NCBI GenBank assembly: GCA_045589435.1
Contig: JAZNPB010000140.1
Span: forward strand, 1,428 to 65,427
DNA length: 64,000 nt
Direction of reading: 5' to 3'
Source of the DNA: Eubacteriales bacterium
Lineage (GTDB): Bacteria > Bacillota > Clostridia > Oscillospirales > CAG-272
Below are positions 3-14,367 of the stretch, one piece after another. Position 1 is the first letter of the stretch. Each line of letters opens with the position of its first letter. The notes under the pieces are model-generated. The model saw nothing but the letters and a program-made list of their open reading frames with translations. It was not told the origin of the DNA and searched no databases. Position numbers and translations under genes: made by a program.

Positions 3-1292
3 GTTTATGCTCTTGACAGATTTGGAAGAAACTCTGTTGAGATAGCATTGAACAAACAAAGGCTATCCAAAAACAAAATCATACTTATTTCGGCAACGCA
101 GAGAACTTCGGTCAATATTGACGGAAGTAAAAACCTTGACGGTATTCTTCTTGAAAACGTGCTTATATGTCTTTCTGAATACTACTCTGTCGAGCTTGCA
201 CAGAAGGTAAGAAGAGGTCAGAGGGAGAGCCGTCGCAAAGGCAACTTTCTTGGTGGCAGACCACCTTACGGATATAGGGTTGAAAACAAGAAAATCCTGA
301 TACATGAGGAGAGAGCTGAGGTTGTAAGGTTAATATTTGACCTATACGTATCCGGAAAATGTGTGCGAGAGATCCTTGAGGAGCTTAATAAACGAGGCAT
401 TCTCTATAACGGCAAACCGATATACCAAAGCACCTTATTTAAGATTTTGAAGCTTGAAAAATACACCGGTGTTTACAGATATGACGGTGAGGTTTACACG
501 GATATGTACCCTCAAATAGTAGATACGGCGGTATTTCAGCGAGTGCAACGAATGATGGATAAAAACAAGCACGGATCCAGCAGTCGAAATACCGATTTTC
601 TGTTGAAAGGAAAGCTTTACTGTGGTAGATGCGGTATGAAGATCAACGGCGACAGCGGAACGGCAAAAAACGGTGAAATGAAATTCTACTACACCTGCTC
701 TAACAAAAAGCGTTTCCGAGGTTGCAGCAAAACGAGTCTAAAGAAGGAGGCACTTGAAAAATGTGTGATAGATGCAACACTTAAGCTTCTGAACACCCCA
801 GAAAAAATATCCAGGCTTGCAGACGAGGTTGTTAATCTTAACGAACAGATATCTAAGGAACAAAGCATTCTTAATTTGCTTATTAGCGAAAGGGCTAAAA
901 TTCAAAAGTCACTTGATAACGTTATGATAGCGATTGAAGAAGGCATAATCACCTCAACCACTAAGGCGAGGATGACCGAGCTTGAAAATTCGCTTGCAGA
1001 AATCAATATGAAGATTGCTGCCGAAGAAAGTAAGCTTGACAGGACACTAAAAAAAGAAGACGTAGAAAAGTTTATAATTGAGGCTCTTGCATCCGAGCCG
1101 AAGGCGATGATTGAACTTTTGATTGACAAGATAATTCTCTATGAGGATAGGATAGAAATATTCTATGTATATGGCAATAATACTGATCCCGATGAACCCA
1201 ATTTGGAAGTTCATCGGGACTTCTTTTTATCTAATCAAAAAATAAAAATAACCCAAAGGGGCTTTGAAGCTACCTTTGAGCTAAAAATATAA
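3..1292 (+). CDS. large serine recombinase/integrase, N-terminus cut by window edge
   Basis: The frame is open from nt 3 (VYALDRFGRN = catalytic-Arg motif of the resolvase domain), so the ORF-track start at 48 is an edge artefact. Downstream are a recombinase domain, a Cys-rich zinc ribbon (CGRCG...YYTCSNKKRFRGCS) and a long coiled-coil tail. Confidence 0.85.
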   Translation, partial: VYALDRFGRNSVEIALNKQRLSKNKIILISATQRTSVNIDGSKNLDGILLENVLICLSEYYSVELAQKVRRGQRESRRKGNFLGGRPPYGYRVENKKILIHEERAEVVRLIFDLYVSGKCVREILEELNKRGILYNGKPIYQSTLFKILKLEKYTGVYRYDGEVYTDMYPQIVDTAVFQRVQRMMDKNKHGSSSRNTDFLLKGKLYCGRCGMKINGDSGTAKNGEMKFYYTCSNKKRFRGCSKTSLKKEALEKCVIDATLKLLNTPEKISRLADEVVNLNEQISKEQSILNLLISERAKIQKSLDNVMIAIEEGIITSTTKARMTELENSLAEINMKIAAEESKLDRTLKKEDVEKFIIEALASEPKAMIELLIDKIILYEDRIEIFYVYGNNTDPDEPNLEVHRDFFLSNQKIKITQRGFEATFELKI

Positions 1293-1515: not shown

Positions 1516-1590
1516 TGGTGACCCGTACGGGAATCGAACCCATGTTTTCAGCGTGAGAGGCTGATGTCTTAACCGCTTGACCAACGGGCC
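1516..1590 (-). tRNA. tRNA-Glu (anticodon CUC)
   Basis: The reverse complement reads GGCCCGTTGGTCAAGCGGTTAAGACATCAGCCTCTCACGCTGAAAACATGGGTTCGATTCCCGTACGGGTCACCA. Cloverleaf with anticodon loop CT-CTC-AC and encoded CCA. Near-identical backbone to the tRNA-Glu at 48098. Confidence 0.9.
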
Positions 1591-5857: not shown

Positions 5858-5868
5858 AAAATCCGTAT

Positions 5869-5904
5869 AAAAAGAAAAACCCCGAGGCGCACTCTACGCT
5901 CGGG
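5869..5904 (-). terminator. first intrinsic terminator directly after the leader ORF
   Basis: Minus strand: CCCGAG-12 nt-CTCGGG followed by GTTTTTCTTTTT. Confidence 0.6.
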
Positions 5905-5931
5905 AATTATAGCAAACGTGTGTCAGCTATT

Positions 5932-6009
5932 TTACGCTATTACTTCTCCGGAGGCGAGTACTTTGTTTGTGATATTGCCGATAGTGTTGTTTGTGTTACA
6001 GATTGTCAT
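5932..6009 (-). CDS. 25-codon leader ORF (MTICNTNNTIGNITNKVLASGEVIA) upstream of the ABC exporter pair
   Basis: AGGAGG lies 8 nt upstream of the ATG. The ORF sits between a consensus promoter and two terminators. It is too short for the ORF track and has no recognisable homology. Confidence 0.45.
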   Translation of the reverse strand: MTICNTNNTIGNITNKVLASGEVIA

Positions 6010-6048
6010 TGTTACTTCCTCCTTTCCTTGATATTTATTTACAAAAGT

Positions 6049-6077
6049 ATTCTAACACAATAGGAAGACTTTGTCAA
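6049..6077 (-). promoter_or_regulatory. sigma-70 type promoter of leader ORF/ABC operon
   Basis: Minus strand: TTGACA, 17 nt spacer, TAGAAT. Confidence 0.6.
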
Positions 6078-6170
6078 TAGGTTTTACATAATTTGTTAAA
6101 TGATATTTTTTTGACAAGTTATGTTTACTCTCTCGGTGCCTTTTTCGTGTTTTTCTCTTTACTTGAATTA

Positions 6171-6203
6171 CAAAAAAGAGCCTCCCAGATCCAGGGGAGG
6201 CTC
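6171..6203 (-). terminator. intrinsic terminator after the GtrA-like gene
   Basis: GAGCCTCCC/GGGAGGCTC stem. On the minus strand it is followed by TTTTTTG. Confidence 0.6.
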
Positions 6204-6209
6204 GCAACA

Positions 6210-6881
6210 CTACTGATGCGCAGATTCATTTTTCTTATCGTTAAAGACGATCTTATTGACTATGAAGAAAACAACCATAGAGATCGTGCCGTTTAACATG
6301 GTGGTTCCGATATTATAAAGCCAAGGACCAACGAAGTGGCCTGCAACGGCTGCCCAAGCACAGTTGATGGAGTTTACAACGCAAGTTACAGCGCAAAACG
6401 CCAAAAAATACCAGCCGCCTTGATACAGTATATTACCGTTTGACTTGAACACGTATTTCCTCTGCATGAAGAAATTAATGACCTCACCGATCACCATGGC
6501 AACCATGTATGCAGTAAAGTATGAAAGTCCTCCCTGATCTGCACCGTAGCCGATTATGTACCACTTAAACTCTATGCCAAAGAGAGTCACGTCAAGTCCC
6601 GGGAAGCCAAAATCACGGTTGCCCATAAATGAAAATGCCATTGGTAAAAACGTCAGGATCAGATATTTAAAAATTGTGATAAGAATGCTTACGATGAGGA
6701 ACAGACCGCCTTCCATCACCCACTGCGAGAGTTTTGGATTTTTCTCTGCAAACGCTCCCCAAACCGTCTTGAATTTTTCTTTTAGTTTGACTACAACGTC
6801 CTTTATCCACTCAAGAGCTTTAACAAAAAATGCTTTGATCTTATTTGTCACTTTTTTAAGAGATTCCTTTAATTTTTCCAT
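6210..6881 (-). CDS. GtrA-like polytopic membrane protein with amphipathic N-terminal extension
   Basis: Several TM segments and a GtrA-type FFMQRKYVFKS motif. Start moved to MEKLKE (ATG 6881), which follows GGAGGAG. The longer ORF-track start lacks an RBS. Confidence 0.5.
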   Translation of the reverse strand: MEKLKESLKKVTNKIKAFFVKALEWIKDVVVKLKEKFKTVWGAFAEKNPKLSQWVMEGGLFLIVSILITIFKYLILTFLPMAFSFMGNRDFGFPGLDVTLFGIEFKWYIIGYGADQGGLSYFTAYMVAMVIGEVINFFMQRKYVFKSNGNILYQGGWYFLAFCAVTCVVNSINCAWAAVAGHFVGPWLYNIGTTMLNGTISMVVFFIVNKIVFNDKKNESAHQ

Positions 6882-7198
6882 AACTCCTCCATAAAGCATG
6901 TCCATCAAGTTTAAGACCTTACATATATAATACCATAAATCCGCATCGAAAAAAATAGGTTCTGCAAAATTTAGCATATTTTTGTTGAAGTAGCACAAAA
7001 ACCTGACGTAGTTTATGTGCAATTTTCACAACTGCCTTGTGAGCTTTATAAGGAAACAAAAGTATCATGCCTATGACAATAAAAGAGATTTTTCAAAAAC
7101 AGCAATTCTGACATTTTCCTGCATTTCTCACATTTTTCCTTGTTTTTGACAATAATTATTTACAAACATCTTGACTTTCAGCAACTTCTATAAGGCAC

Positions 7199-10761: not shown

Positions 10762-12153
10762 ATGAAACTAAAGAAAAATCAAATTTTAGAACTTGATATA
10801 ATTGATATAACGAATCTTGGCTTTGGCGTTGGAAAGATATCGGGGGAGGTCATCTTTATTTCCGACACAGTTCCTGGGGATAGAGTCCGCGCCAAGGTGA
10901 TAAAGGTTGCAAGCTCATATGCCATAGGTAAGGCGGAGGAGTTCATTTTCCTCTCTGACAAGCGCGACCATAGATGCGATAACAGACTCTGCAAGGCTTG
11001 TGCCTACAAGAACATATCCTATGCTCACGAGGCAGAGCTGAAAGCGGCGGCAGTTTGCCAGATCTTCAAAAAGGCAGGGCTTCCCGAGGTTGAGATCGGG
11101 AGCATAATCACATCACCAAAGACTTGCGGTTACAGAAACAAAGCGCAGTACCCCATCAGTCGTGACAAAAACGGGGATTATCAAATAGGATTCTTTGCGC
11201 CAAAGAGCCACCGCGTTACAGATGCTATCGATTGCCCTCTGGCACCAAAAATTTTCTCTGAAATCCTTGCTGAAGCACGGAAGTACTTCAAGGAAAACGA
11301 CCTTTCTGTATACGATGAAGAATCCGGATCGGGACTTCTGCGCCACATATATCTTCGCCGTGGTGAAGTGTCGGGAGAGGTGCTGCTCACCTTCGTTATT
11401 AACGGTGCTTCCTTGCCAAACGCCGACGATCTGGTTTCCCGAATGACCAAAAAATTCCCCCAGATCGTGGGGATCCTTATAAATGAGAATACAAAAAACA
11501 CCAACATAATTTTAGGTGAAAAATACACTGCTCTCTTTGGCAGAGATTATATATTCGACACCCTGGCAGGAGTGGAGCTGAAAATTACTGCTCCATCATT
11601 CTATCAAGTAAACCACGACTGCGCAGAGATACTCTATGCAAAAGCGCGCGAGCTAGCAGATCTCAAATCTGATGACGTTCTTCTCGATCTATATTGCGGC
11701 GCCGGATCTATCGGACTCTCAATGGCAAAAGACTGTAAAGAGGTTATAGGGATAGAAATTGTAGATAGCGCAGTTGAATGTGCAAAGTTCAATGCAGAAA
11801 ATAATGACATAAAAAACGCCTCTTTCTACACCGGAGATGCAAAGGATACAGAAAAGCTCCTTCATCCGGCAGAGGCAGCACGCGTAGAGAAGATTTTGCC
11901 CGACGTAGTTATATTTGATCCCCCGCGTGGTGGGTCAGACGAGGTGCTTCTCCATCACGTAGCTTCCCTCTCTCCAAGAAAAATCGTGTACATTTCATGC
12001 AATCCCGCCACCCTCGCAAGAGATATGGCAATCTTAAAAGAATTAGGCTACATTGGCGGCACGGTAACTCCAGTGGATATGTTCCCCGGAACAGGACATG
12101 TCGAGTCCGTCGTGTGTCTCACACGTCGGCTCGACGTCGATATGCGCCGTTGA
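10762..12153 (+). CDS. rlmD: 23S rRNA (uracil-C5)-methyltransferase, RumA/RlmD(RlmCD) family
   Basis: N-terminal TRAM domain, Cys cluster (CDNRLCKAC), SAM motif LDLYCGAGSIG, catalytic ISCNPATLARD. The last 6 codons are encoded by the 8-mer repeat array. Confidence 0.9.
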   Translation: MKLKKNQILELDIIDITNLGFGVGKISGEVIFISDTVPGDRVRAKVIKVASSYAIGKAEEFIFLSDKRDHRCDNRLCKACAYKNISYAHEAELKAAAVCQIFKKAGLPEVEIGSIITSPKTCGYRNKAQYPISRDKNGDYQIGFFAPKSHRVTDAIDCPLAPKIFSEILAEARKYFKENDLSVYDEESGSGLLRHIYLRRGEVSGEVLLTFVINGASLPNADDLVSRMTKKFPQIVGILINENTKNTNIILGEKYTALFGRDYIFDTLAGVELKITAPSFYQVNHDCAEILYAKARELADLKSDDVLLDLYCGAGSIGLSMAKDCKEVIGIEIVDSAVECAKFNAENNDIKNASFYTGDAKDTEKLLHPAEAARVEKILPDVVIFDPPRGGSDEVLLHHVASLSPRKIVYISCNPATLARDMAILKELGYIGGTVTPVDMFPGTGHVESVVCLTRRLDVDMRR

Positions 12154-12338
12154 TGCGTCGCTCGATATGTCTGCGACTCGATATGGCGCTAAAGCGCTCG
12201 ATATGCCCTGCGGGGCGAGGAGAAAAGGCGCAATCGACACTCGTTGCCAGAGGCAACATATCGAATTTCGAGCGAAGCGAGAAATATATCGAATGGTCGC
12301 AACGCGACCATATATCGAGTTGCGAAGCAACATATCGA
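12137..12338. repeat. mirror-symmetric array: 4 x TCGATATG, then 4 x (C)ATATCGA, each abutting a GC mini-hairpin
   Basis: Forward 8-mers at 12137, 12162, 12178 and 12198. Reverse copies at 12257, 12285, 12311 and 12331. Mini-hairpins at 12186-12197, 12205-12216, 12243-12257, 12295-12309 and 12319-12331. Confidence 0.8.
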
Positions 12339-12369
12339 CAAATGCTACAAAACAAAGGAGCAAGACAAA

Positions 12370-12720
12370 ATGACCGACAACAAGAACCAACTCCGAGAGG
12401 ACGCCATAGAATTTGCTATCCAAATATCCGACCTCTGTGATGAAATAAAAGGTTGCTCCGTTTATGTGAATCAGATTGTCCGTTCTTCATCGTCCATCGG
12501 AGCCAATATTCACGAAGCAAAATACGCACAGAGCAAAGCCGATTTTATAAATAAATTGGAAATCTCCTTAAAAGAGTCTTCGGAAACCGAATATTGGCTT
12601 GAGCTGATTTTTAGAAAAGGTAAAGTGACAGAAATAACCTACAAGGATTTACGCAACAAATGCGGTTCAATCAGGCGCAGACTTATTGCTTCCATCACCA
12701 CAGCCAAGGAAAACGGATAA
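12370..12720 (+). CDS. four-helix-bundle protein (23S rRNA intervening-sequence protein / Avd-like family)
   Basis: 116 aa from ATG 12370, after AAAGGAG. Family-typical ...IVRSSSSIGANIHEAKYAQSKADFINKLEISLKESSETEYWLELI. Confidence 0.75.
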   Translation: MTDNKNQLREDAIEFAIQISDLCDEIKGCSVYVNQIVRSSSSIGANIHEAKYAQSKADFINKLEISLKESSETEYWLELIFRKGKVTEITYKDLRNKCGSIRRRLIASITTAKENG

Positions 12721-12723
12721 GGA

Positions 12724-12793
12724 CAAATAATGAGTTCGAGCGAAACTCGAAACTTCAATTTACATCAGTTTGGTATAACATATCGAAAGGAGA
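12724..12793 (+). repeat. 70-nt conserved cassette leader, copy a (hairpin TTCGAG-CGAAA-CTCGAA, TGGTATAAC, CATATCGA, AAGGAGA)
   Basis: 67/70 identical to 13730-13799. Confidence 0.85.
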
Positions 12794-12802
12794 TTACCCA
12801 AA

Positions 12803-13489
12803 TTGACTTATGGAATTATAAAAAACAAAGACGGTTCGACCTATGTGTCACCGATATTTGCTTTGAAATATGCAGGTTGGAAATCAGAGGTGATTGTCTT
12901 TGATGAAACATTTGAAAAAATCAAAAAGATTGAAATGTGGAATTCTGGTTTTAGTGGAATCCACAGAATTGTATTTGTGCTTGAAAATGATTTTGACACA
13001 AACGGTGGAGAGTTTGCCGGATATGATTGGGTAATCAACGATAAAGCTCTTTTCAAGGCACTTCGGTCAAAGAAAGGTGCAAATATAGAGGATTTCCCTT
13101 TATTCAAAGAGTATTGCAAGGATATATGCGTGCCTGATCTCTTTGAGATAAAAGATGAGAAAGATATCGCTGCTCTCGAAGATGTTTCATTTGGATTTCA
13201 CGATTCCCTCATACAGGAGTATGAGGAAAAGGACGGCAGTATTGTAATACGCTTTGATACAACGTGGGATTGCTACATTACCGTAACCTTTGACGGAGTT
13301 GTCGAGGCTGATTTCAAAGAAAAAGTAGGTCAGATATTGGATTCGGAAATCAAGAAAACGGACGAAGGTTTTTCATTCACGGTATTAGACGGCTTTGCAG
13401 GTTGGATTGACGGCTGTGATTACGGGTCCGAGATTGGAGAGCCTTATATTAAGTGCAAAAGAATTTTTTGGCAAATTGAAATTGCCTAA
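12803..13489 (+). CDS. hypothetical soluble protein (228 aa), TTG start
   Basis: The SD of the conserved leader lies 9 nt upstream of the TTG. No family recognised. Confidence 0.5.
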   Translation: MTYGIIKNKDGSTYVSPIFALKYAGWKSEVIVFDETFEKIKKIEMWNSGFSGIHRIVFVLENDFDTNGGEFAGYDWVINDKALFKALRSKKGANIEDFPLFKEYCKDICVPDLFEIKDEKDIAALEDVSFGFHDSLIQEYEEKDGSIVIRFDTTWDCYITVTFDGVVEADFKEKVGQILDSEIKKTDEGFSFTVLDGFAGWIDGCDYGSEIGEPYIKCKRIFWQIEIA

Positions 13490-13523
13490 AATATACTTTT
13501 GAGAAGATTTACGATAAAAAGTG

Positions 13524-13610
13524 AGACTTTAAGGTATTACAACCCCCATTTTTCGACCGGTGTGAGACCTTTTGGAGTCCCCGCCCATGTCGAATCTGTC
13601 GTTTGTCTGA
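13524..13610 (+). repeat. decayed rumA 3'-end copy 1 (reads TLRYYNPHFSTGVRPFGVPAHVESVVCLTRKCAKNG*)
   Basis: It shares the HVESVVCLTR-coding core with resident rumA (12097-12125). About 80 percent identical to copy 2. Confidence 0.75.
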
Positions 13611-13729
13611 CGAGAAAATGCGCCAAAAACGGTTAAAAACAGGCAAAATCAAACCGTTTTTAACGTTTTTAAGATAATAATTCAAAAAACGGTGTTCAAA
13701 ATCAACCCCCAAAAAATTTTATGTTGGGG

Positions 13730-13799
13730 CAAATAATGATTTCGAGCTAAACTCGAAACTTCAATTTACATCTGTTTGGTATAACATATCGAAAGGAGA
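13730..13799 (+). repeat. 70-nt conserved cassette leader, copy b
   Basis: See 12724-12793. Here the SD serves an 11-codon ORF (MSKKSRKRTTK*, 13805-13840). Confidence 0.85.
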
Positions 13800-13860
13800 C
13801 CAAAATGTCTAAAAAATCACGCAAAAGAACGACGAAATAATAGACCAATCAATTCACGAT

Positions 13861-14367
13861 GTGTTATCAATGCAAAAGCAAACAATGAAAAAAGCTTTTC
13901 TTGATTATTTAGGAGCTACAATTATGTTTTTTGTGATGGCTCTCGTTGTATTTGTAGTTGGACTTTTGACAGAAGACGCTTCGCATTCAAAACGAATTGT
14001 TTTTGTCGCTACACCCATTATTCTTGGTTTTACCATGTTTTTCACTTTTCTTTTTATTCGACGATTTGTTATCTTTAAGGAAATCAACAAGATTACATCT
14101 TCAAGTGAACAGACTATCGAAATTACTTGCAAAAAGGTGGAATTTTTGACTCAACCTATATCCAAACATTCCGCCGTAATTATATGTATTGTATTAACAG
14201 ATGAAAATGGCAAAAAGTATTATGACATAGTAAACGGGATTTCTTATTGCGCAAAAAAGGCGACGCGAGCGGAGTTGTTAAACACAAAAATTACGCTTAA
14301 TTGCTATGTGAACACTAACTATGTGAGAACTCATAAAGTACATACAGAGGCTATAGGGGAAAATTAA
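13861..14367 (+). CDS. hypothetical membrane protein (2 TM)
   Basis: Start uncertain: GTG 13861, ATG 13870 or ATG 13885, none with a clear RBS. It may be the frameshifted continuation of the 11-codon ORF. Confidence 0.45.
   Translation: MLSMQKQTMKKAFLDYLGATIMFFVMALVVFVVGLLTEDASHSKRIVFVATPIILGFTMFFTFLFIRRFVIFKEINKITSSSEQTIEITCKKVEFLTQPISKHSAVIICIVLTDENGKKYYDIVNGISYCAKKATRAELLNTKITLNCYVNTNYVRTHKVHTEAIGEN

Follow-up and report, generated by a model that had tools for sequence, protein, structure and literature searches.

The array at the 3' end of rumA

The window analyzed here is a stretch of 64,000 nucleotides from a member of the Eubacteriales (Oscillospirales, CAG-272; contig JAZNPB010000140.1), in which the methyltransferase gene rumA (rlmD) ends in a mirror-symmetric array of eight 7-nt boxes, followed by a gene for a four-helix-bundle (4HB) protein. 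Four direct TCGATAT boxes form the left arm and four inverted boxes (ATATCGA) the right arm, with GC-rich mini-hairpins in most of the spacers between them (Table 1). Arrays of this architecture recur among gut Clostridia, where their fold is kept while their sequence changes, and they stand upstream of most close relatives of the 4HB gene. They apparently constitute a widespread and previously undescribed family of folded repeat elements; a full-text literature search found no published description of this architecture.

An earlier note on this DNA had described eight boxes, each fused to a hairpin. Sequence reading and pattern counts recovered all eight boxes at the positions noted, together with every GC mini-hairpin that had been named. 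On the left arm, a hairpin indeed follows boxes 3 and 4, but the first two spacers (12144-12161 and 12169-12177) contain no simple hairpins, and box 2 is bracketed by GTCGC...GCGAC. The description was otherwise correct as far as it went, but it omitted hairpin h5, the palindrome h0 and the segment at 12227-12238 in the center of the array.

On the + strand, pattern counts place the 8-mer TCGATATG at 12137, 12162, 12178 and 12198, and its inverted form CATATCGA at 12257 and 12331. The 8-mer is present in nine copies in the window versus 2.1 expected, a number reached in none of 100 shuffles. Eight of the nine copies fall within 12137-13792, including one in each of the two cassette leaders described below (12779 and 13785), as noted earlier. 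No second array was found elsewhere in the 64 kb.

As RNA, the region 12100-12345 is predicted to fold with -104.6 kcal/mol (z = -4.8 versus dinucleotide shuffles); with DNA parameters, the z values versus shuffles are -6.1 for the + strand and -6.4 for the - strand. The region is thus far more stable than its shuffled counterparts. Box 1 is paired with the central segment in the minimum-free-energy DNA fold and with box 8 in the RNA fold, and the pairs of boxes 2:7 and 3:6 each gain one extra G.U pair. No sigma-70-like promoter is predicted inside the array, and a terminator scan detected no intrinsic terminator (hairpin plus U-tract) within 12137-12338. Likewise, Rfam 15 gave no match at gathering score for the window, the region or 15 loci with canonical arrays, and the matches up to E = 10 for the window array and the canonical arrays are due to chance only.

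The array supplies the end of rumA: the last five codons and the stop (VDMRR-stop) derive from box 1 and the first spacer. Immediately upstream, the 5' arm of h0 is conserved rumA coding sequence (VESVVC of RumA), and its 3' arm encodes a new tail, TRRLD. Four open reading frames (ORFs) of 78-147 amino acids (aa) overlap across the array, at 11997-12440 (+), 12043-12423 (-), 12098-12373 (+) and 12119-12355 (-). Such ORFs on both strands arise as a side effect of the palindrome, and calling them as genes would be an error.

Table 1. Features of the array and its immediate surroundings (window positions)
Feature	Position	Strand	Description
rumA/rlmD, 23S rRNA (uracil1939-C5) methyltransferase	10762..12153	+	Pfam tRNA_U5-meth_tr and TRAM; TIGR00479, E = 2.6e-104
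DR1	12097..12122	+	left copy of the 26-bp rumA core CATGTCGAGTCCGTCGTGTGTCTCAC; 85% identical to 13586-13611
h0	12100..12135	+	imperfect palindrome of 36 nt, GTCGAGtCCGtCGTGTG-tct-CACACGtCGGcTCGAC; formed in each of the three predicted folds
Left arm	12137..12216	+	boxes 1-4 with spacers/hairpins; sequence, pattern counts
Left-arm boxes, TCGATAT	12137, 12162, 12178, 12198	+	pattern count
h3	12185-12197	+	GGCGC-TAAA-GCGC; left arm
h4	12205-12216	+	GCCC-TGCG-GGGC; left arm
Central segment	12217..12242	+	GGCGCAATCGAC at 12227-12238; complementary to box 1 and to the beginning of spacer 1
Right arm	12243..12338	+	h4', boxes 5-8, h5, h6, h7; sequence, loop statistics
h4'	12243-12257	+	GTTGCC-AGA-GGCAAC, extra hairpin; right arm
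Right-arm boxes, ATATCGA	12258, 12286, 12312, 12332	+	pattern count
h5	12265-12285	+	ATTTCGAGC-GAA-GCGAGAAAT; tandem G.A pairs, GCGAAGC core; right arm
GCGAAGC mini-hairpin cores	12272-12278, 12322-12328	+	right arm
h6	12293-12311	+	(AT)GGTCGC-AAC-GCGACC(AT); right arm
h7	12319-12331	+	GTTGC-GAA-GCAAC; right arm
Shine-Dalgarno AAAGGAG of the 4HB gene	12354..12360	+	16 nt after box 8
4HB gene	12370..12720	+	116 aa; PF05635 '23S rRNA intervening sequence protein', E = 1.1e-21
Cassette leader 1	12721..12793	+	h5-like hairpin 12735-12751, ATATCGA 12780-12786, Shine-Dalgarno; 95% identical to 13727-13799
DUF4085 gene	12803..13489	+	Pfam PF13315; cargo of the same insertion
DR2	13586..13670	+	displaced original rumA 3' end, HVESVVCLTRKCAKNG and stop, with terminator-like hairpin 13626-13660; repeats
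Cassette leader 2	13727..13799	+	second leader copy; one ATATCGA at 13786-13792

Recurrence of the array in gut Clostridia

One genome per bacterial species was scanned for three boxes in tandem, TCGATATG-N(4-25)-TCGATATG-N(4-25)-TCGATATG. At least 120 stretches matched, where rough arithmetic expects about two by chance. Hairpin-type arms are present at at least 86 loci among the matches listed, most commonly as four direct and four inverted boxes, and nearly all of these loci belong to uncultured Clostridia (Oscillospiraceae, Ruminococcaceae, Acutalibacteraceae and Christensenellaceae) from ruminant guts. Several metagenome-assembled genomes (MAGs) carry more than one array locus. In the orientation of the window, here called B, the canonical order is h0-box1-h1-box2-h2-box3-h3-box4-h4-central-box5-h5-box6-h6-box7-h7-box8-tail.

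The arrays are intergenic and lie behind ordinary genes and tRNA operons, several of them 3' of tRNA genes. Copies without an ORF are dispersed and measure ~170-215 bp from box 1 to box 8. Many of these share a conserved h0, GATTTCATC-gaa-GATGAAATC, preceded by differing sequences that all fit TTGnnn-17-TATAAT; an h0 followed by a T-run occurs only in some of the tRNA-linked copies. The tail beyond box 8 often contains a second promoter-like site, and units may stand in tandem. At four loci (L024, L062, L020 and L068) arrays of differing box families follow one another, AATTCAT/ATGAATT or GCGATAT and then TCGATAT; such tandem arrays are linked by a conserved promoter-like tail (gcatct..N17-18..TATAAT) and the hairpin GATTTCATC-gaa-GATGAAATC.

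Structural covariation

Among 518 distinct spacer entries between boxes of five families (511 distinct sequences), the two ends can pair over at least 3 bp in 72% and over at least 4 bp in 60%, compared to 2.1% and 0.5% of shuffles. Covariation was assessed in an alignment of 22 complete arrays from three box families. For these, RNAalifold predicts a nested ladder of boxes 1:8, 2:7, 3:6 and 4:5 with six local hairpins, in which 96.5% of the cells are paired (78.8% in shuffles) and changes on both sides are seen at 43 of the 59 pairs. The covariation score of 0.471 (versus 0.149) was reached by none of 500 shuffles, and slid controls are only 24-45% paired. The box helices are 97-100% paired and show concerted double changes between families. 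The long branched fold-back, one of two explanations offered in the earlier note, was therefore recovered by the consensus fold and the covariation counts alike, and its arrangement proved to be conserved in relatives.

In a second conserved helix, the central segment pairs with nt 3-7 of box 1 and with h1 (5' arm); this helix is mutually exclusive with the pairing of boxes 1 and 8. This alternative helix is 93.5% paired in the 22 arrays, with double changes in 7 of 12 pairs and a score reached by none of 500 shuffles. Two copies within one MAG (L034 and L067) also differ by compensatory changes. Single deviant boxes provide few informative cases: in L130 the TCGAGAT/ATCTCGA boxes 1 and 8 compensate each other, and in L143 a deviant box 1 does not find its match. 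Kissing between U..C loops of the left arm and G..A loops of the right arm was considered as well, but no matching loop pairs were seen in the arrays inspected by eye.

The four-helix-bundle gene and the box families

The 4HB protein of the window matches TIGR02436 of NCBIfam (E = 1.1e-24), and the nearest structure solved is that of 2RLD, an entry with five chains (E = 1.4e-36). Among the matches listed, a 4HB homologue adjoins or lies near the array at 9 of the 86 loci, and the 4HB gene is the only gene that travels with the array. At L018, a 4HB gene 94% identical to that of the window stands behind a rumA that is only 46% identical.

Homologous 4HB loci were fetched from metagenomes with an alignment. 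Of the ten closest (L121-L130; 64-87% identical by tblastn), seven have an upstream TCGATAT palindrome of at least five boxes that ends 25-47 nt before the ATG; two of the other three have partial arrays and one has another box family. The layout ATATCGA-caaaaGGAG-ATG of the window recurs in L018, L077 and L121-L129. More distant 4HB clades share this architecture, down to the central copy of the h1 arm, but with another heptamer, namely GCGATAT/ATATCGC, GTGATAT/ATATCAC, GTGAAAT/ATTTCAC or GTGAAGT/ACTTCAC. An AATTCAT family also exists, beside TCGATAT arrays. In every family a single heptamer is used throughout all eight boxes, and the families largely coincide with the clades of the 4HB tree, with one outlier (L129).

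Three arrangements of gene and arms were observed. In the commonest, as in the window, both arms are upstream of the gene. In the second, the gene lies between a right and a left arm (L076, L068 and L130), which is the classical layout of the intervening sequences (IVSs) of 23S rRNA. The third, seen in L126, consists of a right arm, a left arm, the gene and a second left arm. In phage collections no close relative of the array-linked gene was found (best contigs 56-59% identical), nor in plasmid collections, where the best matches do not exceed 47% over most of the protein; these plasmid matches supplied the cross-phylum comparison given below.

For pairing by itself, the box pairs 1:8 and 2:7 need not be identical, and the concerted change of the heptamer therefore argues for a sequence-specific reader. 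To this extent the multi-site binding platform that the earlier note had offered as its other explanation is supported; its proposal that the sites are the arm or excisionase sites of a recombinase did not stand, as discussed below.

The rumA site, the insertion and its cassettes

Downstream of the array, the 4HB gene is followed by a leader, the DUF4085 gene and a second rumA C-terminus, and hence the array lies at the left end of an insertion of ~1.49 kb, bounded by DR1 on the left and DR2 on the right. The earlier note had rightly placed the array at a border of inserted DNA in rumA. The displaced C-terminus (HVESVVCLTRKCAKNG and stop) spans 13586-13636 and equals the intact rumA end of a relative with an empty site (L201).

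Among 120 RumA homologues, the C-terminal tails fall into the classes ...CLTRK, ...RRLDVDMRR (type), ...RRLDN, ...RTFNN and ...RTFDN, each followed by the stop. A tail ending in DVDMRR or DIDMRR is the mark of a TCGATATG array and occurs in 17 of the 120, mostly as ...RRLDVDMRR. Syntenic relatives share the gene order HAD, PFK, AraC, rumA. In L201 (84% identical) the rumA site is empty; L202 and L205 carry a GTGAAGT-type array with its own 4HB clade at exactly the same position; and L211-L214 carry the window's type there. From sites that are empty, exchanged or occupied by the same family among close relatives we infer that the module is mobile.

Variation was also seen outside rumA. In human-gut contigs (L141-L196), the number of units in a GTGATAT array that follows a tRNA gene differs within one species, and L150 and L162 have lost two box-plus-hairpin units. 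In L171, the same right arm, promoter and gene stand behind a different h0 context and upstream hairpin.

One explanation of this mobility would be that the arms are multi-site terminal inverted repeats, moved by a transposase encoded elsewhere, with the 4HB gene as cargo or accessory factor, as in a miniature transposable element with inverted repeats (MITE). The dispersed ORF-less copies of ~170-215 bp, several per MAG, are in line with this, as are the dyad symmetry of the arms, whose hairpin-then-box units read towards both outer tips, the presence/absence polymorphism, and the occurrence of the same right arm and gene behind different h0 contexts; multi-site ends are, moreover, known for elements of the Tn7, Mu and Tn402 types. 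We nevertheless consider it unlikely. No transposase gene adjoins any array in the loci read, and no target-site duplication was seen at the array ends there. Copies within one MAG (L034 and L067) are not near-identical but differ by compensatory changes, a 7-bp site is short for a DDE transposase, and such a strong preference for one orientation and for a place 40-85 nt behind a co-oriented gene is not what MITEs usually show. A 28-bp direct repeat around the L120 array was examined as a candidate target-site duplication and rejected, the same sequence being a shared tail/promoter in L064 and L045.

The 3' arm of the palindrome h0 matches each genome's own rumA codons (window versus L205), and the window and L202 have an identical imperfect h0 with different array families. 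The idea, prompted by this match to the codons, that h0 is a fold-back copy of the target made at insertion was rejected, in view of the h0 shared by the window and L202 with different arrays and of the tRNA-linked family, in which the two h0 arms move along with the element (L171). The shared h0 and the tRNA-linked h0 of L171 indicate that h0 belongs to the element or to an attachment site and is not made anew. In L037, a large serine recombinase with Resolvase, Recombinase and Zn-ribbon domains is encoded at 5860-7111 (-), and its frameshifted C-terminal part reads through the rumA core, h0 and box 1 (...TVESVVCLTRRLDVDMRR and stop). This reading into h0 points to h0 as the attachment site of elements that target rumA. 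Possible features of such a site are the 36-nt palindrome, the 26-bp core repeated at 13586 and the L037 recombinase ORF that runs into the core. Judging from these sequences, h0 is probably an attachment palindrome for a serine recombinase, separate from the array, and the likely site of recombination is h0 with the HVESVVCLTR core upstream of the array. The window itself contains the 3' part of a large serine recombinase (Recombinase and Zn_ribbon_recom domains) at 3-1292 (+), cut by the window start; it adjoins a tRNA-Glu(CTC) gene at 1516-1590 (-) and is 30% identical to the L037 enzyme.

These features bear on the proposal that the boxes are arm-type, excisionase or operator sites for a recombinase that integrates cassettes at rumA. 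The array does lie directly beside h0 and is the first element of the cassette array in the window, L202, L205, L211 and L212, and in L037 the large serine recombinase abuts h0 and array. Yet L037 is the only one of ~214 fetched loci with a recombinase near the array; at least 86 loci have the same arrays, behind many unrelated ordinary genes and tRNA operons; and L201 has cassettes without an array. Large serine recombinases are not known to use arm sites, which also speaks against the proposal. Since the arrays are dispersed and without recombinases, we reject this interpretation as highly improbable.

Downstream of rumA lies an integron-like cassette array (window 12721-13799 onward; L201 5336-7200; L202 5336-6500; L211 2496-4200), to which the analysis of the boxes led. 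Each unit is composed of a leader of ~73-75 nt (ggacaaa..hairpin..tttaca..TAACATATCGAAAGGAG), a small ORF and a rumA-3'-like fragment (..PFxVLTHVESVVCLTRK and stop). The cassette genes vary among close relatives (SF0329, DUF4085, DMP19, Mrr, GNAT, flavodoxin and peptidase S51), and a cassette homologous to that of DUF4085 is found at another position in L201. The window contains one extra rumA fragment (13586) with two leaders, and L201 and L211 have two extra fragments each. Leader 1 is kept in L201, L202, L205 and L211, and its hairpin is 80% identical to h5. The boxes of the 73-nt leaders look like degenerate right-arm remnants, and the leaders themselves are a separate, conserved feature of the cassette array. 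Directly after leader 2, an 11-codon, very basic ORF (MSKKSRKRTTK and stop; 13805-13840, +) precedes a 168-aa ORF at 13861-14367; this short ORF may encode a leader peptide or have arisen by chance. Elsewhere in the window, a giant ORF of 6671 aa at 22205-42220 (-) includes tandem repeats (periods 21, 42 and 45 nt) and has a G+C content of 0.47-0.50, above that of the rest of the window.

Orientation of the arrays and evidence for RNA or DNA

Orientation B coincides with the direction of the upstream gene in 14 cases versus 4, and in 10 versus 2 when that gene ends within 100 nt, whereas the direction of the downstream gene is mixed (7 tandem, 6 convergent). In 18 of 23 arrays the sense strand is predicted to be more stable than the antisense strand, by -2.7 kcal/mol on average (p = 0.002). 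The right-arm stems contain tandem G.A pairs (62 in all) and 14 G.T versus 3 A.C pairs, which are favorable on the sense strand only.

The arrays follow co-oriented genes at their 3' ends, in tandem or convergent arrangement, and contain many stable hairpins, which would be compatible with a simple stabilizer or terminator of mRNA 3' ends, with neither a specific reader nor a tie to the 4HB gene. We find this very unlikely, as the hairpins are without U-tracts and as the concerted switches of the heptamer, the count of four plus four boxes, the alternative central helix and the near-obligate array upstream of close 4HB homologues would all be left unexplained.

A more serious alternative is that the element acts at the level of DNA, as a cruciform or folded single strand bound by a 4HB oligomer or another factor, in regulation of the adjacent promoter (autoregulation or insulation) or as a mark for copying or recombination. 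The loop statistics favor it. The loops are GNA triloops (GAA 57, GCA 27, GTA 16, GGA 15) and GNNA tetraloops that include the non-GNRA loops GTCA, GTTA and GATA, and the closing pair of the hairpins is C-G in ~80%. Such loops with C-G closing are the rule for very stable DNA mini-hairpins, of which d(GCGAAGC) is the prototype, and the rule for RNA is GNRA; the GCGAAGC core is present twice in the window. Moreover, the GNA/GNNA loops of the right arm are found on the top strand and those of the left arm on the bottom strand: read on the top strand, 52 of 89 left-arm loops are of the T..C type and 51 of 85 right-arm loops of the G..A type. The strongly negative z values of the DNA folds of the two strands point in the same direction, as does the concerted change of all eight boxes between families, which is what would be expected for protein sites. 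Where the box is GTGATAT or GTGAAAT, the array is placed between a terminator-like h0 and the sigma-70-like promoter of the gene, and it need not be part of any abundant RNA; in several ORF-less copies, a TTGnnn-17-TATAAT promoter abuts h0, with the predicted transcription start inside h0. Finally, Avd-type bundles bind nucleic acids, and target recognition by diversity-generating retroelements needs a DNA hairpin or cruciform irrespective of its sequence.

On the other side stand the right-arm pairs just described, the better fold of the sense strand and the orientation that follows the upstream gene. The only experimental precedent, the IVS, acts as RNA, and a pure operator in double-stranded DNA would need no conserved hairpins. 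We therefore hold action at the DNA level to be possible but doubtful.

Interpretation of the array

The interpretation that we favor, tentatively and at somewhat short of even confidence, is that the array is the fold-back cis-element of an IVS-type selfish module built around the 4HB gene, and that it serves as a probable site of processing or insulation whose heptamers are read by a family-specific factor. According to this model, the eight family-specific heptamers would pair arm to arm into a stem of ~28-32 bp, the mini-hairpin after each box would turn the stem into a stack of four-way junctions, and the central segment would provide the alternative helix with box 1. The window array would be co-transcribed with rumA, since it has no promoter of its own in the window, and would lead into the 4HB mRNA. 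By analogy with the 23S IVSs of Coxiella and Leptospira, the folded stem probably acts as an RNA processing or insulation site, possibly of the RNase III type. Processing would uncouple the host transcript from the mRNA of the element, and the insertion would thereby be made harmless. The factor that would read the heptamers in a sequence-specific manner is most likely the 4HB oligomer.

Several observations weigh against this interpretation. The loop rules and their distribution over the two strands, together with the placement of arrays relative to promoters, are those that favor DNA, and over all spacers G.T pairs show no excess over A.C pairs (67 versus 56). About 90% of the arrays have no adjacent 4HB gene. 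A stem that is interrupted every 7 bp by junctions is not a canonical substrate of RNase III, whose action is suggested by analogy. The co-divergence of box and protein would equally be expected from simple linkage, and because linkage would give the same correlation, the 4HB protein is put forward here as a candidate reader.

A further-reaching version of the proposal is that the 4HB (S23p/Avd-like) protein reads its own heptamer array and possibly moves it, so that gene and array would form an unrecognized class of autonomous selfish elements. We regard this version as speculative and rather unlikely. If it were true, such elements would be present in many bacterial phyla and would settle in or beside hairpins of transcribed DNA. 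The ORF-less palindromes would then represent their non-autonomous derivatives, and the classical 23S IVS would be a special case that landed in rRNA.

Proteins of the PF05635/TIGR02436 family are very common and their structures have been solved, but their function is not known, and the 23S IVSs have been called selfish elements of unknown origin for more than 30 years. Here, the gene is found to come with a defined and conserved cis-structure, namely inverted heptamer arrays, which in Clostridia take the form of a palindrome studded with hairpins. Heptamer and protein clade diverge together, and close relatives differ by gain, loss and exchange of the module at one fixed site. Binding of the heptamer by the protein and cleavage of RNA directed by the fold thus become testable. 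For annotation, the arrays are a new class of structured intergenic repeats of gut Clostridia and a source of spurious ORFs and of altered RumA C-termini.

Comparison with known systems

Genes annotated as 'four helix bundle protein' on annotated plasmids were compared across phyla, considering repeats of 7-8 nt. In Nostoc punctiforme plasmid pNPUN01 (L209), the 4HB ORF lies between (GTCGGAR)x4 and (YTCCGAC)x5; in Bernardetia (L208), (TTAGTGA)x15 is upstream of the 4HB gene and TCACTAA downstream. The 4HB genes of Treponema saccharophilum (L207) and Chlorohelix (L210) are likewise located between inverted short tandem repeats. Judged by these examples from four other phyla, bracketing by inverted short tandem repeats may be a general property of PF05635 genes.

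Avd, the accessory protein of diversity-generating retroelements, belongs to the same superfamily; it forms an oligomeric four-helix bundle and binds nucleic acids, and the homing of these retroelements needs a GC-rich hairpin or cruciform whose structure matters and whose sequence does not. Heptamer arrays, in contrast, are not a feature of theirs; neither a reverse transcriptase nor a template/variable repeat pair was noticed here, although no search was aimed at them.

In the attC sites of integrons, 7-nt core boxes in inverted orientation pair in the folded single strand, and the part between them is conserved in structure only. The arrays share with attC the conserved, inverted 7-nt boxes and the spacers kept in structure only, and the window array stands beside an array of gene cassettes. 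Unlike integrons, however, they are accompanied by no integron integrase and have eight boxes instead of two pairs, and the cassettes are delimited by rumA-like fragments and a leader of ~75 nt, not by box arrays.

MITEs with structured bodies (Correia/NEMIS, pneumococcal BOX and RUP) are co-transcribed with their neighbors, and some are RNase III substrates or carry promoters. Like these, the arrays are small, ORF-less, dispersed and intergenic. They differ in that the arrays read show no signature of terminal inverted repeats with target duplication, and in that copies are of low identity with their structure kept.

The REP/BIME/REPIN repeats of Proteobacteria, associated with RAYT (TnpA-REP), are extragenic mosaic palindromes at gene 3' ends whose units come in inverted pairs. 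Their cognate gene, present in a single copy, has repeats of its own on both sides, most copies are orphans, and roles in mRNA stability or DNA structure have been proposed. The arrays resemble them in their location at gene 3' ends, in their inverted units and in a flanked cognate gene with mostly orphan copies, and they are extragenic as well (7 tandem, 6 convergent and 1 divergent contexts counted). In REP, however, the sequence of the hairpin is conserved and the linkers vary, whereas in the arrays the 7-nt linker stays the same and it is the hairpins that differ: no palindrome is conserved within a genome, as seen from the differing hairpins of L034 and L067 and from the 511 distinct sequences among 518 spacers. 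The arrays also have a fixed plan of four plus four boxes with a central alternative helix, and their copy number per genome appears to be modest. The linked gene encodes a four-helix bundle, not a RAYT (an HUH Y1 transposase); no transposase was noticed in the ORFs read by eye at eight loci, with a few ORFs of fetched loci scanned against Pfam, a search confined to these loci.

The closest likeness is to the IVSs of 23S rRNA with an S23p ORF, as in Coxiella burnetii and Leptospira, which are regarded as selfish (PMC4990558). The Coxiella IVS has GACAGAT heptamers just upstream of its ORF, in 3-4 copies whose number varies among strains, and a terminal inverted-repeat stem of 28 bp, which is cleaved by host RNase III at the start of the first heptamer (PMC4990558). 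The window element and the IVS have in common the PF05635 four-helix-bundle ORF, tandem heptamers upstream of it, an inverted-repeat stem of ~28 bp (4 x 7) and a variable number of heptamers, here evident in the lost box-plus-hairpin units of L150 and L162. They differ in location: an IVS is an insertion in helix 9, 25 or 45 of 23S rRNA, whereas no rRNA was found in the window by the Rfam gathering scan, and the element lies at the 3' end of rumA or, elsewhere, behind tRNA operons and ordinary genes. In addition, both arms are mostly upstream of the ORF (in the window wholly so), the stem is broken after each heptamer by a hairpin conserved in structure, and ORF-less copies are dispersed over the chromosome. 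Given that four heptamers make up 28 bp, we read the window array as a Clostridial, hairpin-interrupted version of the IVS-type stem.

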